Made by a program: the position numbers and the translations under genes. DNA of 32,000 bases. Source: Roseateles microcysteis. GTDB taxonomy: Bacteria; Pseudomonadota; Gammaproteobacteria; Burkholderiales; Burkholderiaceae_C. The stretch is from positions 191,707-223,706 of the forward strand of contig NZ_JBAJMV010000002.1 of NCBI RefSeq assembly GCF_036880965.1, written 5' to 3'. The notes under the pieces are model-generated. The model was not told the origin of the DNA, did no database searches, and saw nothing but the letters and a program-made list of their open reading frames with translations. Shown here piece by piece: positions 17,155-32,000 of this stretch (positions are counted from its first letter, which is position 1; each line of letters starts with the position of its first letter).

Positions 17155-17167
17155 AAAAGGAATCGAC

Positions 17168-17470: not shown

Positions 17471-17479
17471 GGCTTCCCC

Positions 17480-18116: not shown

Positions 18117-18118
18117 TC

Positions 18119-18424: not shown

Positions 18425-18492
18425 ATTTACGAATCGGGCTCGACGCCGATACGGCTCGATTCGTCCATACCTTTTCGGCGCGGAGATTGAAG

Positions 18493-18678: not shown

Positions 18679-18691
18679 GCGCAGCTGGTCC

Positions 18692-18709
18692 GGCCCTTCG
18701 GGGCCTTTT
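18692..18709 (+). terminator. Short hairpin terminator after the coat gene
   Basis: GGCCC-TTCG-GGGCC followed by TTTT, 14 nt after the coat stop codon. Inoviruses commonly attenuate transcription after gVIII. Confidence 0.5.
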
Positions 18710-18711
18710 CC

Positions 18712-18727
18712 AATTCGCATGCGAAAC
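18712..18727. repeat. parS-like palindrome copy S3 (aaTTCGC-AT-GCGAAAC, 12/14)
   Basis: Contains the 12-bp perfect palindrome TTCGCATGCGAA. Lies between the coat terminator and the pIII-like start. Confidence 0.6.
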
Positions 18728-18790
18728 GTGCGCATTGCAAAAGAGGCAAGTCATGGGAATTTGGGTATGTGTCGCGCTGCTGGGGGGTCT

Positions 18791-20248
18791 ATGGATCGTG
18801 CTTCGCGATTAGTCGCTTGTGTCATGGTGTGGGCGCTTCTAGCGTTTGCGCTGGTGGCGCTTTGCTCGCCGGCCTATGCCATAGGGCTTGCTTCGCGTGA
18901 AACCGTGACGACGTATGTAGGTAAGTGCAGTTCGTCGAGCGTTGCCGACGTAACCTCTTCTTCGTCTGCCGGTGCGACGGCCGCGTGTCTTGCTAATTGG
19001 ACTTGGACGGGCTCCGTCTACATTAACGGCTGCACGCGGGCTGTCACGCATGTGGCCTTCATTCATCACGTCGACGCCCTTAGCACGCCTGGAAATTTCA
19101 GGCATTTCATTTACGCCAATCGGACGTATGCCACGCCTGGGACGTGCCAGCCGCAGCCGGCAGACGTGGCGCAGTTTGGGCATGTGGACGTGCTAGCGAC
19201 GACGGCAACGAGTTGCGTTTCGGGCTCGTCACTTATCGCCGGGACCACGGACAAATGTCAGTGCGATCTTGGGCAGAAGCCTGACCCCGCAAACCCCGGT
19301 AAGTGCGTGCCTTACACATGCGCGGCGCCTGGCACGTACTCGGCTGTCACTCAGCCGGACCAACTCGTGCCAAATGCTGGCGATCTGCAATGCGATCAGG
19401 GCTGCGAGAACAAGCCGTCAAGCTGGAAGGCTGGCGCGGACGGCAAGATATGGGCTACGTGGCCGTTTGTGTCTACCGGGAAGACCTGCGGCGGCGCTAA
19501 GTCGGCAACGGCACCGGCTTACGACACGGGGGATTTGAATAATCTCAATCCTGCGCCCGTTGCGTGTCCGGCGAATCAATGTCCGGGCTCAGTTAACGGC
19601 ACAAATGTTTGTGTGGCCTGTTCTGGAACCAAGGTCGAAGGGCCTAGCACGGCTGCGAGTGGCACCACGCCGGCCAATGATGGCTCGGGGTCGATCAAGT
19701 CCGAGAACAAAACAACCGAGTGCACGGGCACCAGTTGCACGACGACGACCACGTACAAAGACGCGAGTGGAAACACAGTCGGCACCAAGACGGAAACCAA
19801 GGATCAGAAGTCCTTCTGTCAGGAGAATCCGACTCTGAGCATCTGCAAAGAATCCGCTTTTGGCGGTAATTGTGCGGGTGGCTTCACCTGTAACGGGGAC
19901 GGCGTGCAATGCGCGCTCGCTCGCGAAGTGCACCGGAACAACTGCGAATGGGCGAAGCAAGACCCGGGCATGAAAGGCGCATGGGATAGCGCCGTCGCAA
20001 ATGCCGGCCAGGCTCAACCCCCAGGGCATCCAGGCGCAGAAGGTGAAGTTACGTCTATGTCGTTCGCGTCTGCCATTGATCAAACAAACCGCCTGGGTGG
20101 CGGCTGTCCCTCGGATGTGTCTATTTCCTACGCTGGCAGAAGCTGGGTAATTCCATGGTCCCAGCACTGCGACAAGCTGCAACTAATCGGTAATTTGATG
20201 GTGTCCGTCTGCATGCTTGCGGCTGCCTTCATCGTCTTTAGGAACTGA
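18791..20248 (+). CDS. Minor coat / host-attachment protein (pIII-like)
   Basis: ATG at 18791 with a G-rich RBS. Signal peptide MDRASRLVACVMVWALLAFALVALCSPAYA, Cys-rich domains separated by Thr/Ser/Gly linkers, and a C-terminal membrane anchor LIGNLMVSVCMLAAAFIVFRN. Sits between the coat and pVI-like genes. Confidence 0.7.
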   Translation: MDRASRLVACVMVWALLAFALVALCSPAYAIGLASRETVTTYVGKCSSSSVADVTSSSSAGATAACLANWTWTGSVYINGCTRAVTHVAFIHHVDALSTPGNFRHFIYANRTYATPGTCQPQPADVAQFGHVDVLATTATSCVSGSSLIAGTTDKCQCDLGQKPDPANPGKCVPYTCAAPGTYSAVTQPDQLVPNAGDLQCDQGCENKPSSWKAGADGKIWATWPFVSTGKTCGGAKSATAPAYDTGDLNNLNPAPVACPANQCPGSVNGTNVCVACSGTKVEGPSTAASGTTPANDGSGSIKSENKTTECTGTSCTTTTTYKDASGNTVGTKTETKDQKSFCQENPTLSICKESAFGGNCAGGFTCNGDGVQCALAREVHRNNCEWAKQDPGMKGAWDSAVANAGQAQPPGHPGAEGEVTSMSFASAIDQTNRLGGGCPSDVSISYAGRSWVIPWSQHCDKLQLIGNLMVSVCMLAAAFIVFRN

Positions 20249-20249
20249 T

Positions 20250-20552
20250 ATGCCAGCACTACTTATCGCGGCCCTTTGGGGTGGTCTGATTCAGGTTCTA
20301 GGTACGCTCGTCGGTAAGGTGCTGGTGTCCCTTGGCATCGGTTATGCCGTTTTCTCGGGGGTCGATACCTCGATCACCTGGGCACGCGATTACGTCATTT
20401 CGCAGATTTCGGCGCAGCACGCCCAGACCGTGGCAGCCGCAAGCGCCTGTAAGGTCGGGGTGTGCATCTCGATTCTTACTAGCGCGCTAGTGGCACGGCT
20501 GACCATCAACGGCCTAACGGGTGGCAGCCTGAAGCGCTTCAAGGTGAAATAG
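20250..20552 (+). CDS. pVI-like minor coat protein (DUF2523-like)
   Basis: 100-aa multi-TM protein MPALLIAALWGGLIQVLGTLVGKVLVSLGIGYAVFSG, starting 1 nt after the pIII-like stop. Size, hydrophobicity and position match the DUF2523 proteins that precede zot in inoviruses. Confidence 0.65.
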   Translation: MPALLIAALWGGLIQVLGTLVGKVLVSLGIGYAVFSGVDTSITWARDYVISQISAQHAQTVAAASACKVGVCISILTSALVARLTINGLTGGSLKRFKVK

Positions 20553-20561
20553 GGCGGGGCG

Positions 20562-20577
20562 GTTTCGCTTGCGAAAC
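20562..20577. repeat. parS-like palindrome copy S4 (GTTTCGC-TT-GCGAAAC, perfect)
   Basis: Perfect arms, in the 24-nt gap between the convergent pVI-like and zot stops. Overlaps the last base of the zot TAG stop. It is the reverse complement of S2, with identity extending over 19 nt (GTAGTTTCGCAAGCGAAAC). Confidence 0.75.
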
Positions 20578-21566
20578 TACTCGACCTTTCGCTCGTTGTG
20601 TGTCGGCACGGCGTGCACTGCCTGCTGCTGCCAGGCGATGAAGAACCCGCCATCAGCAATGCGCCTACACAGGTCCTCCACCATTTCTAGCGCCGTTCCC
20701 TGCTGGCTGTAGCACCTGCACTTGTCTTTGTTGGCAATGCAGGCCGCAGGGTAGGGCGCCTGCGTCGGTTTCGTCACTTCGTCGTAAATTGGCGCGGTGT
20801 GGGGCAGGCCGTCAACGCGGGGCGTGTGGGCCTGCGCATATTGAACCGGCGTTAGTGTCTCGCGCTGGGCTGGCCGCTGGTTATTGCCTCCCATGGATTG
20901 GCGTTGGTCGGCAGTTATGCCTGCCTGTGCATCCATCCGCGCTTGTACGTTTTCTGGCTTCATCCGGTGGTACGCAAACCAGACAAGTGCGGCTAGAACT
21001 ACAGGCAGGGCTAGCAGGATCCAAACGCGCATGGGAATGCGCCGTTTCACCGTGTGAAGCTCTGCCGACTGGTACAGGTCAAAAACGTCTTTCGGATACT
21101 TCCACTCATGGCGGATCGATCCATCGCGGCTCGATGCGACGTTCTCTTTTACGCCGTTCGGGAATTCATGGATCGTCGCTCTGTGCGTGCCGAACTTGCG
21201 CACTACGTGAAAATGCCGGTCCACCAGACGCCGGACAAAGCTGTCCATCAGCATCGGGTTTTGCGTGATGACGACGAAATCCAGCCCCAGGTGGCGATGG
21301 GTTGCTAGGTTGTTGATATGTGGCGGCGGCTCGCCTCGGCCACGAACCGGAAACGGTTTCTGGCACTCGTCGATGACCATGATTGCGCCAGCTGGGAGCT
21401 TTTCCCAATCCTCGGCCGGCCACTCTTGCCATCCGGGGATATTCAGGCCGCGAATGCTGTTGTGAAAGACCGGCCGTCCTTCCTTGATGGCCGAGTCTTT
21501 CCACCGGGCGAGCGCATACAAGGTCTTGCCGTGGCCTGGCAGGCCGGTGATGAGCGTAATCGGCAT
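20577..21566 (-). CDS. zot: Zot / pI-like phage assembly P-loop NTPase
   Basis: MPITLITGLPGHGKTLYAL Walker A, VIDECQ Walker B, central TM VWILLALPVVLAALVWFAY and a Cys-containing C-terminal domain. The ATG at 21566 is 1 nt after the parB-like stop. It is on the opposite strand to all other morphogenesis genes. Confidence 0.85.
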   Translation of the reverse strand: MPITLITGLPGHGKTLYALARWKDSAIKEGRPVFHNSIRGLNIPGWQEWPAEDWEKLPAGAIMVIDECQKPFPVRGRGEPPPHINNLATHRHLGLDFVVITQNPMLMDSFVRRLVDRHFHVVRKFGTHRATIHEFPNGVKENVASSRDGSIRHEWKYPKDVFDLYQSAELHTVKRRIPMRVWILLALPVVLAALVWFAYHRMKPENVQARMDAQAGITADQRQSMGGNNQRPAQRETLTPVQYAQAHTPRVDGLPHTAPIYDEVTKPTQAPYPAACIANKDKCRCYSQQGTALEMVEDLCRRIADGGFFIAWQQQAVHAVPTHNERKVE

Positions 21567-21567
21567 G

Positions 21568-22407
21568 TCAGACCTCGGCGCCGTCGATCTGTTCGCGGAT
21601 CCAGTCGTGTCCGCCGAGTGCTTGCAGCTTGCGGAACTGTTCCGGCGATAGGTCAAGCTGCACCTTATTGAACAATTCGGTCTGTTCTTCGCTTTCGTCG
21701 GTGCCTTCGTCGTCTGCCTGTTCTGCGGCGGCTTCGTCCACCGGATCCGCCTTCAGTTTCGCAAGCGAAGCGCGAACGTCTGCGCGGGCCAGCTGCTCAT
21801 TCATGGCGCGGGTGAGGAGGGCGTTAAGCACTCGCGGCGCGTCTTCGTTCTTGCTCTTGGCAATCTGATTGAGCGTATGCAGAATTTCGACATCGTTCAC
21901 GGCATCGCTGTCGATCAGCGTGCGGACGCGGCTGTCAAAACTCGGGCTTGTCAATGCAAGGTGTTTGCTCACCCATGCCGGCGACTTGTTCACGCGCTTC
22001 GCGACCTCGGCGGGCTTCTTGTAAACGTTGAACAGCTTGCGCACGCCGTCTGCGGTGTCGGCCAGGTTCAAGCCTTCGCGTTGCAGGTTCTCGGCCAGCT
22101 GCACCTCAGTGATGGCGACGGGCTCCTGGTCGACGATCATTGCCGGGATGCGCTCCAGCTTTGCCAGGCGAGCGGCTGCGGTGCGGCGGTGACCATACAA
22201 GACGATGAAGCCTTCATCGGCTTCGGGATCGCGGCGGATCACGATAGGCTGCAAGACGCCATATTGCTGGATCGATTCGGCCAGCTGGCGCAGGCTCTCT
22301 TTGTCGAACCCGTTTCGCGTGCGAATCTGTTCGTGGGTGGTGATGAGGGAAAGCGGAACCAGCTTGACGGCGGCGAGGTCGGCGACTGCATGAGTAGCGG
22401 TGTTCAT
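21568..22407 (-). CDS. ParB/KorB-family protein (N-terminal ParB/Srx domain plus HTH); no cognate ParA
   Basis: ATG at 22407 with AGGAGA 7 nt upstream. Motifs LQPIVIR, YGHRRTAAARLAKLERIPAMIV (the GxRR arginine patch) and HTH PAEVAKRVNKSPAWVSKHLALT. Acidic C-terminal tail. Confidence 0.8.
   Translation of the reverse strand: MNTATHAVADLAAVKLVPLSLITTHEQIRTRNGFDKESLRQLAESIQQYGVLQPIVIRRDPEADEGFIVLYGHRRTAAARLAKLERIPAMIVDQEPVAITEVQLAENLQREGLNLADTADGVRKLFNVYKKPAEVAKRVNKSPAWVSKHLALTSPSFDSRVRTLIDSDAVNDVEILHTLNQIAKSKNEDAPRVLNALLTRAMNEQLARADVRASLAKLKADPVDEAAAEQADDEGTDESEEQTELFNKVQLDLSPEQFRKLQALGGHDWIREQIDGAEV
21756..21771. repeat. parS-like palindrome copy S5 (GTTTCGC-AA-GCGAAgC, 13/14)
   Basis: One mismatch. 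Lies inside the 3' part of the parB-like gene. Confidence 0.6.
22312..22327. repeat. parS-like palindrome copy S6 (GTTTCGC-GT-GCGAAtC, 13/14)
   Basis: One mismatch. Lies inside the 5' part of the parB-like gene. Confidence 0.6.
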
Positions 22408-22545
22408 GTGCGAATCTCCTGAAGTGAGGCGCCCGGGATGGGATACCTTCAGAAGATGCTTCCTCGCTCCCGCCTTGGGGCGGGCGGGGGGTGGGGGCGT
22501 CGCGCTAACGTACAAAAGGGCGCAGCTGCCGCTACACCCGATTAA

Positions 22546-22597
22546 AAAACACCCCCATCGCGCCCCTCGCTCTGCATGGGGACGATGGGGGTGTTTT
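22546..22597 (-). terminator. Long perfect hairpin: terminator of the upstream HTH gene and/or a phage ssDNA structural signal
   Basis: 15-bp perfect inverted repeat AAAACACCCCCATCG / CGATGGGGGTGTTTT around a 22-nt loop that has an internal CCCC/GGGG pairing. Flanked by an A-run and a T-run, so it reads as stem plus U-tract on both strands. Lies in the largest noncoding gap of the prophage (22408-22705). Confidence 0.5.
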
Positions 22598-22705
22598 CAG
22601 GGTGTTGCGGTGGCTGAGCCCTTTTGAGGCTGTCCAGGCCTGGCGCCCGGCGATGACCGTGACACAAAGCCTGCGACTGGCGCGGGCATTGCAGCCAGGC
22701 CGGGT

Positions 22706-23155
22706 TTACCGTGAGGCGGTGGCAGCTGGTGCGATAGGGATCGTTACCCGGACGGGCCGAGATCCTCGAGGAGCTTGGTGGCGAAGCCATAGAGCCCGGC
22801 CCGAAGGGATCGCCGGTCCTGCGTCGTTGGCGCATCCGAAGTCGGCGATTCGGGCCAGCTGCGCGAGCTGGGCGCGTAGACGGCGGTTCTCTGACTTCTC
22901 GGCCATGGCCTGGCTGTACATCATCTTCGCCTGATTTTCGGCGTCGGCATTGGCCGCGGATCGGCCCCAGCGTGTGAGCCAGAACAGCGCGAGCAATACG
23001 GGGCGCGGCGCGAAATTTTCGCGGCGGTAGGTCTGCACGGTGCGGACGGAAATCCCGAGCGCCTTGGCGATCGCGGCGTTTGAGGGCTGGCCGAGGTCGT
23101 CCAGGATCTGGCAGAAGTCGGGCGTACAGGTCGGGCTAGGCAATTTGTGGGGCAT
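22706..23155 (-). CDS. HTH protein, candidate XafT-like (HTH + DUF3653-like) Xer activation factor, inovirus copy
   Basis: ATG at 23155 preceded by AAGG. HTH AAIAKALGISVRTVQTYRR followed by APRPVLLALFWLTRWG. About 40% identical over roughly 100 aa to the divergent ORF at 23314-23781. Confidence 0.55.
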   Translation of the reverse strand: MPHKLPSPTCTPDFCQILDDLGQPSNAAIAKALGISVRTVQTYRRENFAPRPVLLALFWLTRWGRSAANADAENQAKMMYSQAMAEKSENRRLRAQLAQLARIADFGCANDAGPAIPSGRALWLRHQAPRGSRPVRVTIPIAPAATASR

Positions 23156-23267
23156 GGCGAATACCTTCGTCAAGCCAGGCGCGCTGCCTTAGGTGTACGT
23201 CTTGCGTATTGCAAACGGGCCAGGATTCGTGCCAAGAGCCGTGCCATGTAGGCCCATTTGGCAGTTG

Positions 23268-23279
23268 ACATAATACACA
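23268..23279 (+). repeat. Direct repeat ACATAATACACA, right copy (junction between the two prophages)
   Basis: Exact copy of 14694-14705, in the context aGTTGACATAA-TACACA-ttgtcgtgaaa. Lies in the 158-nt divergent gap between the two paralogous HTH genes. Confidence 0.6.
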
Positions 23280-23313
23280 TTGTCGTGAAAAGGTAGGCAG
23301 TGTATGGTCTTCC

Positions 23314-23781
23314 ATGTTAGCGGCTACTACGAAACTCCCAAGTCAGGCAATAAGCAAAAAACCAAGTTGCCCCAGGGAGTCCGAATTGATAGCCAGCTTA
23401 AACCGCCAATCCTTGCCCGATCTGGTCACACTTCTCGCCGATCTTGGGAACCCGCCGCCACGGTGCATCGCCCGTGCGCTAGGCGTTACAGAACGAACCG
23501 CCAGGCGCTGGATTCAGGCCGAGCATGCGCCACGCGCCGCCATGCTGGCCTTGTTCTTCTGCTCGACCTGGGGGCTTTCCAGCGTCAACGCGCAGGCCGT
23601 GAACGAAGCACAGCACGCTGCGGCCATGGCCGCAGCGCTGGCCCGCGAGGTTGCGCAGTTGCGCCGCGAGCTGGCTCGGCTCGCGGCAATTGGTGAGTTC
23701 GGTTCGGCCAACGCTCCCGCGTTCAATGCCGACACGCCCGCGCAGCTCTTGCGGCGCAGGCCGATGCTCAACGGCGCTTGA
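23314..23781 (+). CDS. HTH protein, candidate XafT-like (HTH + DUF3653-like) factor, second-element copy
   Basis: RCIARALGVTERTARRWIQ HTH, then APRAAMLALFFCSTWG and a coiled REVAQLRRELARLAAIGEFG segment. Paralog of 22706-23155. An alternative TTG start at 23386 (GGAG 6 nt upstream) would match the paralog's length. Confidence 0.55.
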   Translation: MLAATTKLPSQAISKKPSCPRESELIASLNRQSLPDLVTLLADLGNPPPRCIARALGVTERTARRWIQAEHAPRAAMLALFFCSTWGLSSVNAQAVNEAQHAAAMAAALAREVAQLRRELARLAAIGEFGSANAPAFNADTPAQLLRRRPMLNGA

Positions 23782-23837
23782 AGCGGCCGTTCTTTGCTCG
23801 TGCTGGGGTCTTGCTCTTGCGCTTCTTTGCCATGGCT

Positions 23838-23996
23838 TCAGCCTTTCAGGTTGTCGATTCGTGCGTGTGCTGCGCGGGCGCTCTCCAGCGCATGCGATGC
23901 CCGTTCATTGAGCCGCGCCAGGTCGGCCCGAATGCCGGCATAGACGCTGGCAGCGAGCGCCGCCTGTGGCAGCAGTTGCAGCAGCCAGTCAGGCAT
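23838..23996 (-). CDS. Small protein (52 aa), hydrophobic N-terminus plus coiled segment; lysis-module candidate
   Basis: MPDWLLQLLPQAALAASVYAGIRADLARLNERASHALESARAAHARIDNLKG. Its ATG overlaps the upstream stop (TGATG). Below the ORF-track length cutoff. Confidence 0.4.
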   Translation of the reverse strand: MPDWLLQLLPQAALAASVYAGIRADLARLNERASHALESARAAHARIDNLKG

Positions 23997-24163
23997 CAGC
24001 TCTGCGCCTTCTCGGGCGCCAGGACGGCCACCAGGCCGGCCACGCCGGCAATGACCTGGCCGGCCAGGTCAACGGTGCCAGGCGGCAAACCGAAGATCAG
24101 GCCGAGGGCCGAGATACCGGCCCAGGTGCTGGGCTCGCGCAGGCGCTTCAAAAATTGCTTCAT
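23996..24163 (-). CDS. Small membrane protein (55 aa)
   Basis: MKQFLKRLREPSTWAGISALGLIFGLPPGTVDLAGQVIAGVAGLVAVLAPEKAQS. Two hydrophobic segments. Starts 3 nt after the upstream stop. Confidence 0.45.
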   Translation of the reverse strand: MKQFLKRLREPSTWAGISALGLIFGLPPGTVDLAGQVIAGVAGLVAVLAPEKAQS

Positions 24164-24166
24164 GGT

Positions 24167-24454
24167 TCAGCTCCAGAGGTAGGAAAGAAAGTCCTTTGCC
24201 GGACAGGCAAAGGATGCGTCCCAGGTGCGGCCCTCGGCCTTCGCCTTCTCGCACTCGGTGAGATTGGTTTCAGGGATGCCAACGGCCTTTCCGATGGCGA
24301 TGGCGCCACCTGATACGGTGCCGTCCACCAGGTCAACGGCCGCGCCGCCAATGGCCGCGCCGGCTCCCTTGAAGCCGCCCTTGTAGGCCACCCAGGCGAG
24401 CGCCAGGACGACTGCGCCGCCGGCTGCCAGGTAGACGGGTGGAATGCGCGCCAT
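24167..24454 (-). CDS. Small membrane protein (95 aa)
   Basis: N-terminal TM PPVYLAAGGAVVLALAWVAY and a Gly/Ala-rich segment. Starts 2 nt after the upstream stop. Confidence 0.55.
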   Translation of the reverse strand: MARIPPVYLAAGGAVVLALAWVAYKGGFKGAGAAIGGAAVDLVDGTVSGGAIAIGKAVGIPETNLTECEKAKAEGRTWDASFACPAKDFLSYLWS

Positions 24455-24456
24455 GG

Positions 24457-24639
24457 TCAGAAATAGACCTTCGTCGGGTCCCAGTTGGGGTTGTCGGACG
24501 GGTTGACCCGGCCGCCGCCAGCGCGCACGCCGGCCGCCGTTTTGGCGGTGCCGCCCGATGCCTTGACGATCATCCAGACAGCCACGGCGGCCAGGCCCAG
24601 GACGATGAGTTCTGTTTTCTTCATGGTCACGCCTTTCAT
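24457..24639 (-). CDS. Small membrane protein (60 aa; alternative start at 24624), holin-like candidate
   Basis: MKGVTMKKTELIVLGLAAVAVWMIVKASGG. The ATG at 24639 overlaps the SLT stop (ATGA), and a second ATG at 24624 has an AAAGG RBS. The track ORF extension to 24780 overlaps the SLT gene. Confidence 0.5.
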   Translation of the reverse strand: MKGVTMKKTELIVLGLAAVAVWMIVKASGGTAKTAAGVRAGGGRVNPSDNPNWDPTKVYF

Positions 24640-25235
24640 GCGTAGTCGGTGCCGGCCGTGCTGTTCACGTCCGCGAGGATTTGCCCGAAGTAGTTGCGGG
24701 TTTCGCGTGGCGCCGCCTCCAGGCCCTTGCGCGACACATTGCCCATTCCCCAGTTGTAGGCGGCCAGCGCTTCCGACCAATTGCCGAAGCGGTTGAACAG
24801 GCTTCGCAGGTAGCGCGCAGCGGCCGGGATTGCCTGGGCCGGGTTCAGCGGGTCGATGCCCATATCCCGCGCCGTGGCGGGCATGAACTGGGCGATTCCC
24901 AGCGCGCCGGCAGGGCTGCGCGTGGCGCCGCTGATGATGTCTTCTCTGTACCGGCTCTCTTGGTACAGCAGGCGCTCGAGCATCAGCGCCGGCAGGCCGT
25001 TGTCCTGCTCGGCCTGCGCGATCAAGCCTGCGTAGCGTTCAGGCGCCCGCCAGAGCTGCAAAAGGTTCACCGTCTTGCTCACAATCGTGTCTCCCACATC
25101 TGCGGCCGACTCAAGCCAGCCGCCACCATCTGCCGGCGCCGCATCCGGCGCCGCCTCTTCTTGTCGCTGCCGGTACATGACCCACGCGCCCACGGCCAGC
25201 AGGCCGGCAGCACCGATCAGTACAGAGCCGCGCAC
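24636..25235 (-). CDS. Membrane-anchored lytic transglycosylase (SLT domain)
   Basis: GTG start and an N-terminal TM. Catalytic and structural motifs LLYQESRY, GALGIAQFMPATA and AAYNWGMGNV. Confidence 0.85.
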   Translation of the reverse strand: MRGSVLIGAAGLLAVGAWVMYRQRQEEAAPDAAPADGGGWLESAADVGDTIVSKTVNLLQLWRAPERYAGLIAQAEQDNGLPALMLERLLYQESRYREDIISGATRSPAGALGIAQFMPATARDMGIDPLNPAQAIPAAARYLRSLFNRFGNWSEALAAYNWGMGNVSRKGLEAAPRETRNYFGQILADVNSTAGTDYA

Positions 25236-25238
25236 CCG

Positions 25239-25574
25239 TCAGCCCCCTCGCCGCGTGCGCGCAGCCTTGGCGGCCGTTTCCTTGCCCTCCAGATAGGCCA
25301 CGTCGGCGCCGACCTTCTTTGCGATGGCGATAAACACCTCGCGAGCCGTGCGGCTCATGCCGGTGTCTCGGTCGATCTGTTCTAGCTCGACGCTCGCCGC
25401 CTCGGCATCGCTGGGAGGAACCGCAGCGACTGCAACGAAGGCCGCACCGTCCCAGCGCTTGCCGATAGGTGCCGCGCCTGGTGCGAGTTCGATCATGGTC
25501 GGGCTGTCCACCTTGCCGCCCAATTCAGACACGCCAACGCAGATGCCGGCGCCGTTGATCTGTGCGTATCGCAT
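25239..25574 (-). CDS. Hypothetical protein (111 aa)
   Basis: ORF coupled to both neighbours (1-nt and 3-nt junctions). No recognisable motif. Confidence 0.5.
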   Translation of the reverse strand: MRYAQINGAGICVGVSELGGKVDSPTMIELAPGAAPIGKRWDGAAFVAVAAVPPSDAEAASVELEQIDRDTGMSRTAREVFIAIAKKVGADVAYLEGKETAAKAARTRRGG

Positions 25575-25915
25575 CAGTTGCTCTCCTGGATCTGCCAGCG
25601 CACAACCATTCGCTTGTACGTGTTCAAGGTGCCCGAGAAAATCCGCATCGTCGTGGCGTTCACAAAGTAGGCCTTCGGCAGGCTGGCGCTTGTGTTGAAT
25701 CGGCCCACGCGGCCCGCTGTGTTTGCTGTCGTTGTGGCTGACGCATCGTCACCCACCACACCATTCAAAAGAATCACCGCCTTGGCCGTATTGACGGCCG
25801 CGACTGTCACGTCGATGTAATGGCCCTCAGGTTCAGTTCCTGCGGTCAACCCCGCCTGGTCAACGTCCACCAGGCCAGATTGCACCTTGAAGCCGCTGCT
25901 TGCACCAATGCCCAT
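25574..25915 (-). CDS. Beta-rich hypothetical structural protein (113 aa), vertex/spike candidate
   Basis: Alternating hydrophobic pattern typical of beta-sandwich proteins. Lies within the structural operon. Confidence 0.5.
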   Translation of the reverse strand: MGIGASSGFKVQSGLVDVDQAGLTAGTEPEGHYIDVTVAAVNTAKAVILLNGVVGDDASATTTANTAGRVGRFNTSASLPKAYFVNATTMRIFSGTLNTYKRMVVRWQIQESN

Positions 25916-25918
25916 GCG

Positions 25919-26500
25919 TCAGCCCTCCAGCACGGCAACGGCCGTCGTTGCGCCGCTGCCGATCACATTGATTTGCCCCGTAGGCGCTCGGCCCTGGATC
26001 TCCAGGGATTGACCGGGCGGGAGCTTCACGCCGTTCGCCACGGTCGCGGCCGTGCCGTCCAGGCGCAGATAGATGGTCACGCCCGCATCGTTGTTCTGGA
26101 TCAGCAGATAGCGGCGGTTCGCATTGGCCGCCAGCAGCTGGCCGGATGCGCCGGTCACGTTGCCCAGCGTCTGACTGAAGCCGCCGTTCTCGTTTTTCAC
26201 GGTCACGGTGCCGGTGATGTTCACGGCGCCAACTGCGCGGTCGTAGCTGACCTGGCCGCCCATGCGCGTGACGATGGAGACCACGCCGCCCGCCACGCTG
26301 GTGATTCGCACGCGATCAAACTTCAGCGACTCGCTGTACCCGGCGCCGACGTTTTGCACGTCGGCGACTTCGCGGCCCTGAAAGTAGAACTTGAGCGCCA
26401 CATCCTCGGCCGCGCTGGACAGGACCCGCAGGAAGTCACCGGCCTCGTTTATTTCCTTGGCGCCAGCGGCGCCGGCCCCCATGTTCTCGTTGAAGTACAT
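25919..26500 (-). CDS. Beta-rich hypothetical structural protein (193 aa), spike/receptor-binding candidate
   Basis: Gly/Val/Thr-rich beta-strand pattern (VNITGTVTVKNENGG, YLLIQNNDAGVTIYLRLDG). Lies within the structural operon. Confidence 0.5.
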   Translation of the reverse strand: MYFNENMGAGAAGAKEINEAGDFLRVLSSAAEDVALKFYFQGREVADVQNVGAGYSESLKFDRVRITSVAGGVVSIVTRMGGQVSYDRAVGAVNITGTVTVKNENGGFSQTLGNVTGASGQLLAANANRRYLLIQNNDAGVTIYLRLDGTAATVANGVKLPPGQSLEIQGRAPTGQINVIGSGATTAVAVLEG

Positions 26501-26509
26501 CGCGTGCCT

Positions 26510-27268
26510 TTACTTCTTCCAGGCCATGAGCGCGAAGGCCGCAGCCGCCGCCAGGCCCAGGATGGTGATGGTCTTGTTATCGAGGCTGCCGCTCTTCTCG
26601 GTGGTCGCGCTGCGGTAAGCCTCGGTGGTCAAGGCGCCGACGTTCTCAACGGCCTTTATGTTGCTGTCGAACATGGATTTACCCAGCGATAGCAACTGCG
26701 AGAAGCCGGCTCCGACCGTGGCGTTTGACTTCTCTGCAAACGCAAAGGCTTTGTCCTGCGATTCGCGCTGGGCGTCAGCCAGTTCGCTCGCCGACGAACG
26801 AGCGAACCCGAGCGCGTCTTTGTTGGCCGTGGCAGCAAAGCCGAAGGCTTCAGAGCCGAAGCTAAACGCCCGGTCCGTGGTCTTGGTGTTGGCCGTGATC
26901 GCGGTTTCCATGGCGCGCAGCGCGCCAGGGTCGAACTGGTTGACCGATCGGTTGCTGTTGTCGGTGTACTTGACCGACGAATCCGAAGACGACGACGACG
27001 AGCGGTTGCTGCTGTCGTTAACCGTCAAGTCCATCATGGTTGACAGGTTGCGGCTGTCGTTCACGTTGACCGATTGGTCCCGCGTGTCGGTGATGGCAAT
27101 GGAGCTGCCGCCCGTGGCGCCCAGGCTTCCATCCCCCAGCACCAGGCGGTTATCCAGCGCCGTGCTGGTGTTTTGGGTGGATGACGAAGAGTTCGTCCCG
27201 CCCGAGTCGCCTCCGAAGCTCAGCCGGAAGGCCAGCGCCGGTATGAAGAATTTGAACAGTGCTTTCAT
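26510..27268 (-). CDS. Ser/Asn/Thr-rich membrane-associated protein (252 aa)
   Basis: N-terminal signal-like MKALFKFFIPALAFRLSFGG, low-complexity SSNRSSSSSSDSS region and a C-terminal TM ITILGLAAAAAFALMAWKK. ATGA overlap with the upstream gene. Confidence 0.55.
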   Translation of the reverse strand: MKALFKFFIPALAFRLSFGGDSGGTNSSSSTQNTSTALDNRLVLGDGSLGATGGSSIAITDTRDQSVNVNDSRNLSTMMDLTVNDSSNRSSSSSSDSSVKYTDNSNRSVNQFDPGALRAMETAITANTKTTDRAFSFGSEAFGFAATANKDALGFARSSASELADAQRESQDKAFAFAEKSNATVGAGFSQLLSLGKSMFDSNIKAVENVGALTTEAYRSATTEKSGSLDNKTITILGLAAAAAFALMAWKK

Positions 27269-27660
27269 GCGATCTGCTTTTCCAGAATGAACCCACGGCC
27301 GACGCTGCCGGCGATGCTGTATCCCAGGGCTAACGCCTTATGAACGAGCCCGCGCCTCATGGTCTGAAACGCAACGCTTGCGCAGCCCACGGCCCGCGCT
27401 TGCGCCTCAATGACGGACAAGCCCGCCTCGGTCATGCCCTGGCCGGTGCCGGCTGCCGCGTGTATCCAGCAACGGCCCGCCGCCCTGGCGCTCAGCGTGT
27501 AGATGCACGCGCCGGAATCTGTCTCGACCTTGAAGGACTCACCCGCGAGCGCCGCACTCATTGGCGTGGCCCTGCCCTGCGGGTCCAGGCCTGCGCAAGC
27601 CTTGAAGGCTTCCGCCGCCTGTTCCACGCTGGCTCTGGTCAGCGCCGCACGATGGCCCAT
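27265..27660 (-). CDS. Hypothetical protein with a possible GNAT-like acetyltransferase core
   Basis: CWIHAAAGTGQGMTEAGLSVIEAQARAVGCASVAFQTMRRGLVHKALALGYS resembles GNAT motif A/B (a Q/R-x-x-G-x-G/A-like loop, then helix-strand, then a GY/GF ending). Weak, by eye only. Confidence 0.4.
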   Translation of the reverse strand: MGHRAALTRASVEQAAEAFKACAGLDPQGRATPMSAALAGESFKVETDSGACIYTLSARAAGRCWIHAAAGTGQGMTEAGLSVIEAQARAVGCASVAFQTMRRGLVHKALALGYSIAGSVGRGFILEKQIA

Positions 27661-27950
27661 ACCGCCACCAGAGCCAGGCCCATCAAGGCCATGGTTTGCC
27701 AGTCGCCGCCCAGGCCCAGGCCCGAGGCCATGCCGTCCGCGCTGATCGGGTTGCTTTCGGTCTTGGTCTTTGTCGACGTGCTGTCGATGGTCCCGCCGCC
27801 GAAATTGACATTCCAGCCCGAGTGATCGGCCTCGAAGTCGTAGGTTCCCGTCAGGTGCGATTCGGAAGGCCCGGTAGGTGGCGTCGTGAGCGCCTTGCCG
27901 AGCACTTGGGTGCCGCCGTTGATGAGGGCGCCCATGGTCATCGGGTCCAT
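27639..27950 (-). CDS. Small virion-membrane protein candidate (103 aa)
   Basis: RBS AAGGA 5 nt upstream of the ATG. C-terminal TM WQTMALMGLALVAVWAIVRR. Confidence 0.55.
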   Translation of the reverse strand: MDPMTMGALINGGTQVLGKALTTPPTGPSESHLTGTYDFEADHSGWNVNFGGGTIDSTSTKTKTESNPISADGMASGLGLGGDWQTMALMGLALVAVWAIVRR

Positions 27951-27959
27951 GGGGGTCCT

Positions 27960-28229
27960 TTATCGCTTGGCGAGCAGCAGCACAAGCACAAGGCCCGCGC
28001 CGCCAATCAACAGCATCGTTTTCGGGTTCATGCCCGCCACGGTGCCCTGAGGCACTCCATTGCGCTGACCTTCCGCGTAATAGCTGCCCGTCTGGCCCAG
28101 GGCCTTGAGGCGCATTTGCTCAGTCTCGTAGGGCTGGACCCACTTTGCCTCGACCGCCTTGCTGATGGCGTTCCCGGCAATGTTCTGGACCCAATCGGAC
28201 CACGAGCCGGAGGTGTTTTCTCCGTCCAT
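27960..28229 (-). CDS. Small virion-membrane protein candidate (89 aa)
   Basis: C-terminal TM MLLIGGAGLVLVLLLAKR. Immediately downstream of the capsid candidate. Confidence 0.55.
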   Translation of the reverse strand: MDGENTSGSWSDWVQNIAGNAISKAVEAKWVQPYETEQMRLKALGQTGSYYAEGQRNGVPQGTVAGMNPKTMLLIGGAGLVLVLLLAKR

Positions 28230-28241
28230 GTGGTCCGTCCC

Positions 28242-29072
28242 TTACAGGTTGCCCAGCACGTCGATGTATTCGACGATCACGCTGCCGGTGTCGGCCGCGC
28301 TGAAGTCGAACAGCCATTCCAGGCTGCGCGCATCGCGGGTGTCCAGCGCCTTGCGCACGTCGCCGTCAACCACGAAGTCAATCGTGTAGACGTTGGCCTG
28401 CGGAACGCGCTTCTGGCGAGTCTGCTCCTGCTGGTTCTCAGCGGCGATGCTCTCATGCACAACGAGGCCGTCTTGCTTGACGGTCGCACCGGTCATGTTG
28501 CCGCCGTGGAACACGTGAACCCGCTTGATGATGGCGCCGTTTTGCGGGCCAAAGGGAACCGTGATCGGCAGCTTGCCGCCCGAGCTGATGTTGTACGGGT
28601 ACTTGAGGATTTTCGCCAGCAGCGGTGCGAAGGGCTGGTACTCGCCGCCCTGCGACTTCTGAGCTGCGGCCTCGGTCACGATGGGCGTGAGGATCGGGGC
28701 CGTAGCGCCCGCGATGCTCACTTCCGTGGTGATGTTGGCGATACCGATTGAGGTATCGAAGGCCGAGACCATCCGGTCAAACTCATTGTTCAGCGAGTAG
28801 TCGGCGAACGGAATGTCCAGATAGGCCGCGTTCGCAGCATCGCCGCGATAGGCGTTGATCTTGTCCAGCTCGGTGCCCGTGCCTTCGATGATGACCTTGC
28901 CGTTGGCCTTGATCTTGATGGCCGTGAGCATGGCTTTCGTCAGCGCAGTGCCGGCGAGCTTCAGCTTGAAGTTTTCCAGCGTGCGGCCGGGGGTGATGTT
29001 GTTGGTTGCGGTGCCAGTGGCGACCACATTTGCGAACGGCAGGCCGTAGCGGGTGAGTTTTCCGACGCTCAT
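28242..29072 (-). CDS. Candidate major capsid protein (PM2 P2-like double jelly-roll size class)
   Basis: 276 aa, beta-strand-rich throughout, with no TM. It is the largest soluble protein of the operon. It lies between the packaging ATPase and a run of small membrane proteins, as in corticovirus-like genomes. The fold cannot be confirmed from sequence by eye. Confidence 0.5.
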   Translation of the reverse strand: MSVGKLTRYGLPFANVVATGTATNNITPGRTLENFKLKLAGTALTKAMLTAIKIKANGKVIIEGTGTELDKINAYRGDAANAAYLDIPFADYSLNNEFDRMVSAFDTSIGIANITTEVSIAGATAPILTPIVTEAAAQKSQGGEYQPFAPLLAKILKYPYNISSGGKLPITVPFGPQNGAIIKRVHVFHGGNMTGATVKQDGLVVHESIAAENQQEQTRQKRVPQANVYTIDFVVDGDVRKALDTRDARSLEWLFDFSAADTGSVIVEYIDVLGNL

Positions 29073-29086
29073 GCTTCAGCCCTCAC

Positions 29087-29266
29087 TCAAACCACGTCTT
29101 TGACGTAGGGAACACGCTTGGCGACCGCGCCAGCAGCCACGGCCAGGGCCGCAGCCTTGACCATCGGATTGCCGTACTTGTAGGCCGCAAACAGGATGCC
29201 GCCAGCAATGGCGAGCTTCTTCAGCGATTCGGAGTCCACGTTGATTTCCTTTGAACAGTTGCACAT
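29087..29266 (-). CDS. Small membrane protein (59 aa from ATG 29266, or 50 aa from GTG 29239)
   Basis: ...VDSESLKKLAIAGGILFAAYKYGNPMVKAAALAVAAGAVAKRVPYVKDVV. AAGGAA lies 6 nt before the GTG. This replaces the implausible Arg/Cys-rich track ORF 29076..29318 in another frame. Confidence 0.45.
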   Translation of the reverse strand: MCNCSKEINVDSESLKKLAIAGGILFAAYKYGNPMVKAAALAVAAGAVAKRVPYVKDVV

Positions 29267-29320
29267 ACAGGGTTGGCCGCATCGGTTGCCCCGGTGCTGG
29301 CGTCTTGCAAGGCCTCATTC

Positions 29321-29353
29321 AAAGGAAAACGAGAACCGGGCACGAGGCCCGGT
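29321..29353 (-). terminator. Rho-independent terminator after the ATPase gene (boundary between early and structural units)
   Basis: The minus strand reads ACCGGGC-CUCGU-GCCCGGU followed by UCUCGUUUUCCUUU, 34 nt downstream of the ATPase stop. Confidence 0.6.
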
Positions 29354-29386
29354 ATCTCTTCCCGTTACCGTATGGCTCGGGCGCCG

Positions 29387-29998
29387 TCAGAAGCTCAGTT
29401 TTCCGCGCTGAATGCCTCCCGTAAGGGCATCCATGTGGACGAACTGCAACGGGGCCAGTCCGTTGATTTCCTCTATGGCTATCCGGGTCTTGCGCGCCAG
29501 GTAGGCCGCGTCGTCGCCGCTCGACTGCCGGAAGACCACGTAGTCCGAGGCATTGCCAAACGCGGTCTTGTCGGCCTCGCTCCAGCGCTGCGAGATGCAG
29601 CGCAGGGTGATGCCGCGCTTGAGGCCCCGGCGCACCAGAATGCCCCAGTTCCCCGGCGCCTTGCTTGGCGTGGTCACGTCGGCCAGCTCTTCCGCGATGG
29701 CCTCAAGCGGCTCGACATAGCGGCCCGCGTACATGACGCACCCGGCCCAGAAGTCAAACTCACCCGCCAGGCTTCCGCCCGCCACGTAGGCCACGCGCTG
29801 CGCGCCTGGCTTCTGTGCCGCTTCGAGCAGTTGTTTTCGTGTCGTGACCTTGCGCCAGCCTGGCAGCTCGCACCATTGGGCCTCAGGGTCCCACGCGAAG
29901 ATTCGCCGCGCCTTCTTGACCTGGCGGGCGGTCCATGCGGTCTTGCCGGAGCGCGAGGCCCCGGCGATCACGTACAGGCGGCCGTCCTGTGTCTTCAT
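29387..29998 (-). CDS. Genome-packaging ATPase candidate (FtsK/HerA-like, PM2 P9 / PRD1 P9 class)
   Basis: 203 aa from the ATG at 29998 (ATGA overlap with the upstream stop). Walker A YVIAGASRSGKT, Walker B-like LEAIAEELAD and no TM. The track ORF's 74-aa Gly/Arg-rich extension is rejected. Confidence 0.65.
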   Translation of the reverse strand: MKTQDGRLYVIAGASRSGKTAWTARQVKKARRIFAWDPEAQWCELPGWRKVTTRKQLLEAAQKPGAQRVAYVAGGSLAGEFDFWAGCVMYAGRYVEPLEAIAEELADVTTPSKAPGNWGILVRRGLKRGITLRCISQRWSEADKTAFGNASDYVVFRQSSGDDAAYLARKTRIAIEEINGLAPLQFVHMDALTGGIQRGKLSF

Positions 29999-30474
29999 GC
30001 CTCGACGGTCCCGATTACGACGGACTTTGAGCCCTGCGCCACCGGTGGCGGTGCCTCCAGCGCCTGCGCCGGCTTGGGCTTGTTCAGCACCTGCACGGCC
30101 ACGAACCCGCCCAGCGGAAGCAATGCCATCGTCAGGCGGCCCCATGGGGTGCGCATCCAGTCCACTGACGTGCCGTAGTGGTCCATGATGACCGCGATCC
30201 CCTCGGGGATGGGCTCCCAATAGTCGTCTGGCGCCTCGCGCAGCGCCGGCAGCGCCACCGTCGCCAGCGGTCGCAGTTGCTTGATGAGGACCTTTGCCGC
30301 TGCCAGGGCCTGCGGGCTTGGGGGTGGAAGCGGCGCATCTTCTGCCTGGCCCTGGGCCGGCACTGCCGCACCCGTTACCGTAGCTGTAGCGCCATCGGCC
30401 GCCGCTTGCAGCGCGGCCAGGTCGGCGGCCTGCTCGACGGCTGGCCCCTTGTCGTTCTCGGTGTCTTGGTTCAT
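29995..30474 (-). CDS. Hypothetical protein (159 aa), Ala/Pro-rich N-terminus and one TM
   Basis: Coupled by ATGA overlaps at both ends. TM LTMALLPLGGFVAVQVL. Confidence 0.5.
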   Translation of the reverse strand: MNQDTENDKGPAVEQAADLAALQAAADGATATVTGAAVPAQGQAEDAPLPPPSPQALAAAKVLIKQLRPLATVALPALREAPDDYWEPIPEGIAVIMDHYGTSVDWMRTPWGRLTMALLPLGGFVAVQVLNKPKPAQALEAPPPVAQGSKSVVIGTVEA

Positions 30475-30782
30475 GTCTTCAGGAATGCAAAGGGGTCATA
30501 GGGGGCCGGTGCCGCAGGCTTGACCGGGGCCGGCTTGGGCGCTGGCTGCTGTACCGGTGCCGGTGCCGTTACCGTAGGTGCCGCCGCTTTTCCAGCGGCC
30601 CAGGGATAGCGGGCCAGGAACGCGGCCACGCGGTGTTTCTTGCCGCCTATGCGCATCTGCTGATCGCAGTTCGCTTCGCAGTAGCCGAAGGGCTCTCCGT
30701 TGCGGTCATGCGTGATGCGCATTCCTTTGGCGGTGCCGCAGGTTGGGCAGTCGATGTGCCCGAGGATTTCCCGCGTCTTCAC
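30471..30782 (-). CDS. Zinc-ribbon protein (CPxC...CxxxC) with a Pro/Ala-rich tail; possible transcription factor
   Basis: GTG start overlapping the upstream stop (GTGA). HIDCPTCGTAKGMRITHDRNGEPFGYCEANCDQQ supplies four Cys ligands. Confidence 0.55.
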   Translation of the reverse strand: MKTREILGHIDCPTCGTAKGMRITHDRNGEPFGYCEANCDQQMRIGGKKHRVAAFLARYPWAAGKAAAPTVTAPAPVQQPAPKPAPVKPAAPAPYDPFAFLKT

Positions 30783-30964
30783 AGCGGGGCGTGTTCCAGT
30801 TGGGCCGGCTTGAGCCAGGGTTGCGCGTCGATGGACTCGCCATCGACCACGCCGGCAATGTGAACCTGCACCGACGACGGGCGCACGTCCACGACGGTGC
30901 CCACCAATCCTTGGTACTTGCCTGATCGGACCTTGACGGCTTCATGGGGGCGGAATTTCTGCAT
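30779..30964 (-). CDS. Small KOW/SH3-like hypothetical protein (61 aa)
   Basis: MQKFRPHEAVKVRSGKYQGLVGTVVDV resembles a KOW-type motif. Overlaps the 3' end of rep by 23 nt. Confidence 0.45.
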   Translation of the reverse strand: MQKFRPHEAVKVRSGKYQGLVGTVVDVRPSSVQVHIAGVVDGESIDAQPWLKPAQLEHAPL

Positions 30965-32000
30965 GGTCGTTACCCTCTTTGAGCCCCCCGGCCCTCGATT
31001 TCCAGCGGTGCCAGCGGCCCCGCTTCTTGATCCGCTCGACCGATGGCGCGAAAAGCGGCGCCGGCCGCGTGCAGTTATTGACAGGACTCCAAGGGCGAGC
31101 GGCTGCGCCGCCCGCCTGGGAACCCTTCAGGCGCTGGCGCGCCTGCTCGACGAACCCACCCGGCACGATGAGCCAGGTTGCCCGCTCGCTCTCGACTTCG
31201 CGGCGCACCTGGCGCGTTTGCGGGTAGGCCTTGACGATGCCGAACGCCGGCACGATTTCTCGGACGGTCTCAGCAGTCACCACGCCCACAGCTCGGGGCG
31301 GCATGGCCTCGCCATAGCGGCCCAGCTCGCCAGTCGACTCGCGCAGCACCTTGAGGCGCAGGCTGCCACGCTTGGGCCGGTGGCCGCCTTGGAGCATCAC
31401 ATACCCGGCCCATCCGTTCGCCGCCGTGTATCGCTGCATTGGCTCGCTGGCGGACTCTTGCGCCATGGCTGTGAGGTTCGCGGCATCTAGCCCGAACGCG
31501 ACAACAGCAGAGGCCGCGGCCTGTTCAGGATGCAGCCGGCGCAGCTCTCGCCACACTCCCACAGGCGCCCCGCCGATCTGCTGGAATTGGCGAATCCGCC
31601 ATGTGCTGGCCCAGGCATCGACGCGCTGCGAGCTGGTCAGGGTGTCATTTCCGTACAGGTCTTTTTCGACCTTGTAGCCGTCGATGTTCTTGGCGACGTA
31701 TTTCGCTATGTATCCGGCTGCGCTTCCGCGCTGCCAGTCGATGCGTTCAACCTTGCAGCGGTGCCGACGAGCACCACGCTCGTTTGCCGAATCGTTGTGC
31801 AGAAAATAGCGCCGCAGCAAACGCACCATGACTCGGTACGCTTCACGCGGCCGTCCAGGCTGACGACGCCCCCGAGGAACCGCAGTTTCTGGGAAGAACA
31901 ACAGCGCATGCCAGTGGGGGGTGGCGTCATGGTTTGGCTCTGCGATCCGGAATCCGTACAAGTCAAGGCCGGCTCTGTCGGCCGCAGCCCTGAAGCGGCG
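30942..32000 (-). CDS. Rolling-circle replication initiator, phage GPA (P2 gpA / PM2 P12-like) family; N-terminus outside the window
   Basis: DLYGFRIAEPNHDATPHWHALLFF contains the HUH-type metal-binding motif (HWH plus a hydrophobic stretch) of the GPA family. The reading frame stays open from 31961 to 32000 with no stop. The track start at 31961 is an internal TTG. Confidence 0.7.
   Translation of the reverse strand, partial: RRFRAAADRAGLDLYGFRIAEPNHDATPHWHALLFFPETAVPRGRRQPGRPREAYRVMVRLLRRYFLHNDSANERGARRHRCKVERIDWQRGSAAGYIAKYVAKNIDGYKVEKDLYGNDTLTSSQRVDAWASTWRIRQFQQIGGAPVGVWRELRRLHPEQAAASAVVAFGLDAANLTAMAQESASEPMQRYTAANGWAGYVMLQGGHRPKRGSLRLKVLRESTGELGRYGEAMPPRAVGVVTAETVREIVPAFGIVKAYPQTRQVRREVESERATWLIVPGGFVEQARQRLKGSQAGGAAARPWSPVNNCTRPAPLFAPSVERIKKRGRWHRWKSRAGGLKEGNDHAEIPPP

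Follow-up and report, generated by a model that had tools for sequence, protein, structure and literature searches.

PM2-like prophages were described as early as 2007 in the genomes of Methylibium petroleiphilum PM1, Methylobacillus flagellatus KT and Ralstonia eutropha H16 (PMC1950889), and a phylogenomic study of 2022 united the betaproteobacterial prophages as clade D of the order Vinavirales, for which the name 'Neaeraviridae' was proposed (PMC9502842). The same study took homologues of P16 and P15 as prophage boundaries, reported a T4-lysozyme-like lysin in the betaproteobacterial group and did not settle how these prophages integrate (PMC9502842). In the case of NO16, a temperate phage of Vibrio, dif-like sites were described and integration by XerCD was proposed (PMC9966536). 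The dif sites of Vibrio are used by filamentous and by some tailless prophages (PMC11630473), and in 2025 'dif-type' double jelly-roll prophages were described that stand in tandem arrays with inoviruses and carry a shared lysogeny module of P16/RstR, P15/XafT and a dif-like phage attachment site, attP (PMC12715192); DUF3653 is the defining domain of XafT (PMC6744903). Here we analyze a stretch of 32,000 nucleotides (the window) from Roseateles microcysteis, a freshwater, high-GC member of the Sphaerotilaceae (Burkholderiales, Betaproteobacteria), in which a block of minus-strand genes at 23.3–32.0 kb resembles these viruses.

We interpret this block, very probably correctly, as most of a PM2-like Vinavirales prophage (some 8.7 kb out of about 11 kb) that was inserted by Xer recombination. 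From its genes, the prophage is predicted to be that of a temperate, tailless, icosahedral double-stranded DNA phage with an internal membrane. It stands next to an inovirus-like prophage, and the two are separated from each other, and the array from host DNA, by dif-like sites.

Gene content and order of the PM2-like block

The identification is carried first by a 276-residue protein, both halves of which match the coat family of PM2 (Pfam P2_N, E 1e-25; P2_C, 7e-39). Its AlphaFold2 model (predicted local distance difference test score, pLDDT, 81; predicted template modelling score, pTM, 0.83) is nearly all β-strand and forms a double jelly roll, for which the best Foldseek match is PM2 P2 itself (2vvf_A; E 1.7e-19; TM-scores 0.80/0.82), followed by STIV, PBCV-1 and PRD1/PR772. 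When the sequence is compared with the PDB by phmmer, the capsid protein of 9t9v is found at 1e-12. An identical protein, encoded on a contig of 887 kb, is already named 'major capsid protein P2 [Roseateles microcysteis]' at NCBI. The family comprises 1047 matches when clustered at 90% and falls into 466 clusters at 50% identity; among its 120 closest homologues, 41 have a longest contig of 9.7–11.5 kb.

Upstream of the capsid gene, across a gap of 314 nt that holds one small open reading frame (ORF), is the gene for a 203-residue ATPase. This protein has a Walker A motif (GASRSGKT, 29939–29962), no hydrophobic segment and a weak similarity to HerA in the PDB. In a tblastn search of a phage collection of 50,697 records, it matched the 'putative ATPase' (gp21) of NO16-like Vibrio phages (33% identity, 1e-23) and P9 of PM2/Cr39582 (33%, 6e-9), and nothing else in that collection. 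Profiles built from relatives and searched against the proteins of PM2 and NO16 gave the same two partners, with E-values of 2e-50 for NO16 and 8e-37 for PM2 P9. The replication initiator (Rep) at the right-hand end of the window matches PF05840 (Phage_GPA, E 3e-28) and PM2 P12 (2e-35 by phmmer), and retains both the HUH motif (HWHALLFF, 31893–31916) and a YxxxY active-site motif (YIAKYVAKN, 31686–31712). Because its match to phrog_91 covers only positions 384–648 of 852, we conclude that the gene is cut by the window end. Finally, a 193-residue protein matches NO16 gp14 (E 6e-8) with a profile that was built without NO16, and NO16 GP14 has been deposited as 'Penton base' in PDB entries 9t9r/9t9v.

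These proteins stand in the setting that PM2 would lead one to expect, as the gene set and gene order of PM2 are present on the minus strand in a tight run of ORFs (23.8–32.0 kb). Read from Rep, the order begins with a 61-residue protein (P13 has 64 residues), a 103-residue zinc-ribbon protein (P14, 101), a 159-residue protein (gp h, 143) and the ATPase (P9). It continues with a 59-residue protein (P7), the capsid protein (P2), small membrane proteins (P3/P8), proteins of 131 and 252 residues (the latter in the place of P10) and the vertex protein, and it ends with the lysin, further small membrane proteins and a divergently transcribed regulator at the position of P15. The proteins of 61, 103 and 159 residues gave no direct match to P13, P14 or gp h in the profile search against PM2 and NO16; they are putatively assigned to P13, P14 and ORF h by position, by size and by the zinc ribbon of the 103-residue protein (CPTCG...C..C, with CPTCG at 30735–30749). 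The 61-residue protein has, in addition, a weak KOW match in Pfam.

All ORFs of the block were scanned against Pfam and PHROG, and among those visible (8.7 kb) neither scan found a portal, tail, scaffold, integrase or transposase gene. The sole match with terminase in its name is phrog_2666 ('terminase large subunit'), which is a label of the P9-type ATPase itself. The same gene order recurs in 15 loci of other genomes (given L numbers below), with capsid-protein identities of 56–83%, and we therefore take the ORFs of the block to be real genes rather than chance readings. The closest of these relatives are nearly all in genomes or bins labelled Betaproteobacteria; L008 is labelled Geobacteraceae and L014 Leptospira.

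The closest genomic relative, L001, comes from a Roseateles metagenome-assembled genome (83% capsid identity) and spans 11.4 kb between its junctions. Beyond a Rep of 690 residues it has two small ORFs, an XRE repressor and a dif-like junction, after which the host gene xth follows, and no integrase, tail or portal gene is found anywhere in it. The R. microcysteis element is truncated by the window end at 32000, with the N-terminal part of Rep and the far junction outside. Since the Rep of L001 has 690 residues and further ORFs precede its junction, some 338 residues of Rep would be missing from the window copy, which in total would be about 2.6 kb short, and the full-length element should measure about 11 kb.

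An earlier note, made from the sequence alone, had proposed a PM2/corticovirus-like prophage next to an inovirus. The components that it listed are all in the ORF list, on the minus strand and at or near the places it gave: the GPA-family rolling-circle initiator with HWHALLFF, now tied to PF05840 and PM2 P12; the Walker ATPase of 203 residues with GASRSGKT and no transmembrane segment; the all-beta protein of 276 residues; three small regulators; proteins of 113 and 193 residues; a Ser-rich protein; and a membrane-anchored lytic transglycosylase (PF01464). The comparisons that it proposed point the same way: the 276-residue protein is a double jelly roll closest to PM2 P2, and the ATPase matches those of NO16-like phages and PM2/Cr39582, with no conjugation ATPases among its matches. 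Its statement that portal, terminase, tail and scaffold genes are missing holds, apart from the phrog_2666 label on the ATPase. Tail or portal genes past the window, which it had raised as a possible objection, are absent from L001, which ends at host xth. Its association of the element with a Xer site and an inovirus agrees with the dif-like sites A and B and with the Zot, DUF2523 and Rep_trans genes described below.

Could the block be a decayed, non-inducible cryptic prophage that has become fixed at the dif region? Such a remnant would fit with only part of the element being visible, and the odd layout of the neighbouring inovirus-like prophage, which has Zot and ParB on the opposite strand, hints at rearrangement of the array. 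All visible genes, however, are intact and match their L001 counterparts over nearly the full length, the conserved set is free of frameshifts and stops, and the close relative L012 is a circular 10.6-kb contig. We consider a cryptic remnant unlikely. The features of the locus are collected in the table.

Features of the R. microcysteis window in coordinate order (lengths in residues; assignments by PM2 position are putative)
Feature	Position	Strand	Remarks
dif-like site A	14689–14716	-	GACGGACCGTG TGTGTA TTATGTAAACA; junction of inovirus-like prophage and host DNA
Inovirus-like prophage	14692–23173	both	XRE repressor, Rep_trans, ssb-like, coat-like, pIII-like, DUF2523 (pVI-like), Zot, ParB/KorB, HTH155 paralogue
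dif-like 28-mer, site B	23263–23290	-	TTTCACGACAA TGTGTA TTATGTCAACT; junction of inovirus-like and PM2-like prophages
Helix-turn-helix (HTH) regulator, 155	23314–23781	+	PM2 P15 position; terminal gene, reads away from site B
Four small proteins, 52, 55, 95 and 57	23838–24630	-	Mostly with a hydrophobic segment; position of PM2 lysis/small membrane genes
Membrane-anchored lytic transglycosylase, 199	24636–25235	-	PF01464 SLT, E 7e-21; hydrophobic residues 1–19
Proteins of 111 and 113	25239–25915	-	111-residue protein conserved in L001 and L002
Penton (vertex) base protein, 193	25919–26500	-	Matches NO16 gp14; conserved in 12 loci
Ser-rich protein, 252	26510–27268	-	C-terminal hydrophobic anchor, residues 232–250; PM2 gp j/P10 position; kept in most loci
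Protein of 131	27265–27660	-	Weak phrog_610 match; found also in L001 and L014; in the place of the conserved Vinavirales GNAT-like gene (map in PMC9502842)
Two small membrane proteins, 103 and 89	27639–28229	-	C-terminal hydrophobic segments; PM2 P8/P3 positions; conserved in related loci
Double jelly-roll major capsid protein, 276	28242–29072	-	Pfam matches and structure model
Protein of 59	29087–29266	-	Between ATPase and capsid genes, PM2 P7 position; conserved in 11 loci
Packaging ATPase, FtsK/HerA (P9) type, 203	29387–29998	-	NO16 and PM2 matches
Three small early/regulatory proteins, 159, 103 and 61	29995–30964	-	ORF h, P14 and P13 positions
Rolling-circle replication initiator, C-terminal 352	30942–32000	-	PM2 P12 / P2 gpA type; cut by window end

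Several of the smaller genes deserve comment. Six to nine small proteins of the element carry hydrophobic segments; among those of 59, 89, 103, 57, 95, 55 and 52 residues, a strict Kyte–Doolittle criterion flags four, and the rest are hydrophobic by eye. The four small proteins nearest the regulator are all conserved in related loci, and that of 55 residues matches NO16 gp09 (profile, 9e-8) and phrog_38447. The transglycosylase, with homologues in L001, L004, L006, L008 and L014, may act as the lysin or as a muralytic enzyme at entry. The 131-residue protein is putatively GNAT-like by position. Directly downstream of the penton base gene lies what appears as a variable slot: its 113-residue product (25574–25915, minus) is without a homologue in all 15 related loci, and we suggest it as a candidate host-recognition or receptor-binding protein.

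dif-like junctions and the inovirus-like neighbour

The PM2-like block starts at 23268, inside the 28-mer that we call site B. Of its 28 positions, 25 agree with the proteobacterial dif consensus, including all 11 of the XerD arm, and the site lies 24 nt from the terminal regulator gene, a spacing that is identical in L001. At site A, where the inovirus-like prophage meets host DNA, the central region and XerD arm are as in site B, and the site coincides with the end of the host genes and with a drop in GC content from 0.65 to about 0.6. The two sites share a 17-nt core, of which chance alone would give 0.02 copies in the window instead of the two observed. A search for the E. coli type of dif, in which as many as three mismatches were allowed, had no match; the two sites emerged only with a degenerate proteobacterial consensus.

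Similar junctions surround the related elements. Two dif-like sites 9.5–11.9 kb apart bracket the elements of L004 (Nitrosovibrio), L009 (Methylophilaceae), L002 (Propionivibrio) and L001 (Roseateles), as well as those on the short contigs L005 and L013. Most of these pairs combine one good dif match with one site that has a degenerate arm, which is the pattern left by Xer insertion of an attP with one poor arm; in L001, neither site is near the consensus. Because the betaproteobacterial relatives are bracketed in this way and no integrase is encoded, XerCD integration in a tandem array is the likely mechanism, judged from the sequences.

The circular relative L012 (about 10.6 kb, with a 127-nt terminal overlap) carries one dif-like site. 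This lies within the 3' end of the XRE repressor gene (3825–4271), and the ORF reads through the site ('GSICIM...'). In most related loci an XRE repressor adjoins a dif-like site. With attP inside the 3' end of the repressor gene, integration would therefore swap the C-terminal tail of the repressor. In the R. microcysteis window, the XRE repressor of the inovirus-like prophage terminates with '...RVCIM' and its stop codon inside site A (14692–14716).

Some PM2-like prophages carry tyrosine integrases or IS630 transposases (PMC1950889, PMC9502842, PMC12715192), and the far end of the present element is outside the window, so that an integrase or transposase of its own could be sought in the 2–3 kb beyond, with the dif-like sites belonging to the inovirus alone. 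We regard this as very unlikely, since Rep and the xth-side dif-like junction of L001 enclose nothing but two small ORFs and the XRE repressor, since the elements of L002, L004 and L009 on longer contigs and of L005 and L013 on short ones are all dif-bracketed, and since the distance of 24 nt between site B and the terminal regulator gene is precisely that seen in L001.

The neighbour is classed as inovirus-like because it has Rep_trans (PF02486, 3e-20), the pVI-like DUF2523 (PF10734, 2e-13), a coat-like gene (99 residues, 18379–18678) and Zot (PF05707, 5e-23). Its Rep_trans, coat-like, pIII-like and DUF2523 genes are on the plus strand (15973–20552), opposed to the minus-strand genes at 20577–23173, namely Zot (20577–21566), a ParB/KorB-like gene (21568–22515) and an HTH gene that is a paralogue of the regulator across site B (22706–23173). 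This convergent layout, unusual for an inovirus, suggests that part of the prophage was inverted or that two elements make it up. A DUF2726/DUF559 gene with a Vsr-like endonuclease fold (15140–15601, minus), also within this prophage, is probably cargo. The XRE repressor of the inovirus-like prophage is related to that of the L001 element (29% identity, E 1e-6), and apart from repressor and HTH genes, no inovirus homologues are found near the related PM2-like elements.

As the inovirus-like element uses the same site, the two elements together would form an array of integrative mobile elements exploiting Xer (IMEX). A comparable arrangement appears in Comamonas suwonensis (L003), where a copy of the 155-residue HTH gene, a dif-like site and an XRE repressor are present at both ends of the prophage (4500–5200 and 15617–16277), and we conclude from this set at the two ends that the L003 genome also holds a multi-unit array.

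Regulators at the attachment site and points against the reading

Two paralogous HTH proteins of 155 residues (HTH155) diverge from site B, one in each prophage (22706–23173, minus; 23314–23781, plus), and are 43% identical to each other. The copy in the PM2-like prophage has weak Pfam matches to HTH_23/HTH_29, and the profile of its relatives finds PM2 gp a (157 residues), which we take to be P15, at E 5.5e-5. A structure search against BFVD returned a single significant match, an uncharacterised protein of a Corticoviridae sp. Family members share a segment 'APRxxxLALFWxTxWG', followed by a long helix, and have no Pfam match beyond the HTH; the two paralogues gave no tblastn match in the 50,697 phage records, and no relative of the regulator was found in the PDB. 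HTH155 homologues adjoin dif-like sites in L001, L003, L006 and L014.

In relatives without HTH155, a second protein family is found next to attP (L012 3285–3728, L004 15194–15406, L015 17155–17430, L013 9883–10104), and it has no DUF3653 match. A DUF3653-like identity was considered for the 147-residue member from L012, but Pfam did not confirm it. As this unrelated family replaces HTH155 in some relatives, the P15 slot is filled by at least two alternative families. The HTH155 proteins may be functional analogues of XafT.

A number of points weigh against the reading of the block as a PM2-like prophage inserted by Xer recombination. In direct comparison, the capsid protein resembles PM2 P2 weakly, with 19% identity in the structural alignment and a phmmer E-value of 0.024 in the PDB. 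The XerC arm of site A is degenerate (4/11). DUF3653, the XafT domain, is not found by Pfam in either HTH155 paralogue or in 22 homologues (24 members). The case for the locus being the true chromosomal dif is weak, as it comes down to a 4:1 count of KOPS-like (FtsK-orienting polar sequence) motifs: the host flank (1–14600) has four copies of GGGNAGGG on its plus strand and one on its minus strand, directed towards the array, and GC skew in this flank is positive, both signals being too weak to place dif. Completeness of the element and a third dif-like site are extrapolated from L001, as the right junction, the N terminus of Rep and the XRE repressor would lie beyond 32000. Lipid in the virion, inducibility, dependence on Xer and the roles of the small proteins are likewise predicted from genes.

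Proposed life cycle and relation to described viruses

For a PM2-like prophage inserted at dif, as we prefer to read the block, the following cycle can be envisioned. By homology with PM2 and NO16, the P12-type HUH initiator would nick the circular genome and start rolling-circle replication, and the small factors at the P13 and P14 positions would turn on the late operon. The double jelly-roll capsid protein, as trimers, and the 193-residue penton base would assemble round a vesicle studded with small hydrophobic proteins, and the P9-type FtsK/HerA ATPase would package the DNA. The membrane-anchored SLT transglycosylase and small membrane proteins would open the cell wall at entry, exit or both. 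The dif-like attP would lie between the XRE repressor, outside the window, and the HTH regulator at the P15 position, and the element, having no recombinase of its own, would be inserted at dif by host XerC/XerD. The array would then read host, site A, inovirus, site B, PM2-like phage and an unseen third site. In such an array, the two arms of site B would differ in origin, the XerC arm coming from the PM2-like phage and the XerD arm from the inovirus. It is conceivable, though doubtful, that HTH155 is a new, non-DUF3653 family of Xer helpers that is exchanged between filamentous and icosahedral betaproteobacterial phages as part of a module, in which an XRE repressor with attP in its 3' end is followed by the helper gene, and that this module directs integration at dif independently of FtsK.

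PM2 itself (Pseudoalteromonas, Corticoviridae) shares with the element the gene order and homologous Rep, ATPase and capsid proteins, the capsid folds superposing with a TM-score of 0.80. Whereas PM2 is lytic, marine and hosted by a gammaproteobacterium, the present element is integrated at a dif-like site. The PM2 spike P1 has 335 residues against 193 in the penton base of the element, capsid identity is about 19%, and the lysin is an SLT transglycosylase in place of the P5 type. A tectivirus, an autolykivirus-like phage or a FLiP-like single-stranded DNA phage would share the double jelly-roll fold, common to all of them, and FLiP-like phages also have a rolling-circle Rep and genomes of about 9 kb, but we reject these lineages as extremely improbable, because family-B DNA polymerase and terminal protein are missing, Rep is an HUH protein like PM2 P12, the element has a packaging ATPase of the P9 type (FLiP-like phages are not known to have one), the Pfam match is specifically to P2_N/P2_C, the top structure is PM2 P2 and the gene order is colinear with that of PM2.

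By sequence, the closest cultured relative is NO16, with matches to the capsid protein (26% identity, E 1e-10 to 2e-9), the ATPase (33%, 1e-23), GP14 and gp09. Like the element, NO16 and the Vibrio dif-type prophages, proposed as 'Asemoviridae' (PMC9966536, PMC12715192), are temperate, have no integrase, and combine dif-like attachment sites with terminal regulators; the Vibrio prophages, too, stand in tandem with inoviruses whose lysogeny module is related to their own. In contrast to NO16, the element resides in a high-GC, freshwater betaproteobacterium, its Rep is of the PM2 P12 type, its dif-like sites have a TGTGTA centre, and the regulator next to its attP is only weakly P15-like and has no detectable DUF3653.

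The fit to Corticoviridae (PM2) that the earlier note favoured thus holds in part. The element is PM2-like and falls in the order Vinavirales; strict membership in Corticoviridae (genus Corticovirus) is doubtful, because the similarity to PM2 P2 is remote, ranks below that to NO16, and the nearest relatives are betaproteobacterial prophages. The element most likely belongs to clade D, the betaproteobacterial clade, a placement made by host class. Methylibium, one of the genera with such prophages, is a close relative of Roseateles. With clade D 'Neaeraviridae' and the elements described in PMC1950889, the prophage shares betaproteobacterial hosts and the Vinavirales core gene set. Dif-like junctions are seen here, where the clade D study left the integration mechanism open (PMC9502842). 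The lysin of clade D was reported to be T4-lysozyme-like, whereas the element and five relatives have an SLT transglycosylase (PF01464). Lysins are exchanged between these phages, and the T4-lysozyme-like type is typical of clade D, not defining.

The locus can also be set beside the IMEX arrays of CTXphi, TLCphi and VGJphi (PMC6744903). As in those arrays, the element has no recombinase of its own, its 28-bp junctions combine one conserved and one degenerate arm, elements are stacked at one site, and a small HTH protein lies beside attP. It departs from the paradigm in that one array partner is an icosahedral double-stranded DNA phage and that no DUF3653 (XafT) domain was detected; its dependence on Xer is a prediction.

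The element is not the new lineage that the earlier note had thought possible. This kind of element is already known, since PM2-like prophages have been recorded in Betaproteobacteria since 2007 (PMC1950889), clade D was grouped in 2022 (PMC9502842) and the capsid protein is already named at NCBI. The locus makes a modest addition by extending the dif-type lifestyle, with its arrays, to the betaproteobacterial clade: three features of the marine Vibrio prophages, namely an integrase-free dif-type lifestyle, stacking with filamentous phages and a shared lysogeny module, are found in freshwater Betaproteobacteria too. The picture of what PM2-like viruses are is unchanged. For prophages that standard tools tend to miss, the XRE repressor, the dif-like site and the P15-position regulator offer boundary markers.

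On the host side of site A, the flank (1–14600) carries a serine dehydratase (sdaA), gcvP, gcvT, a two-component pair, a DegP-like protease and a 1390-residue PD40/amidohydrolase protein.

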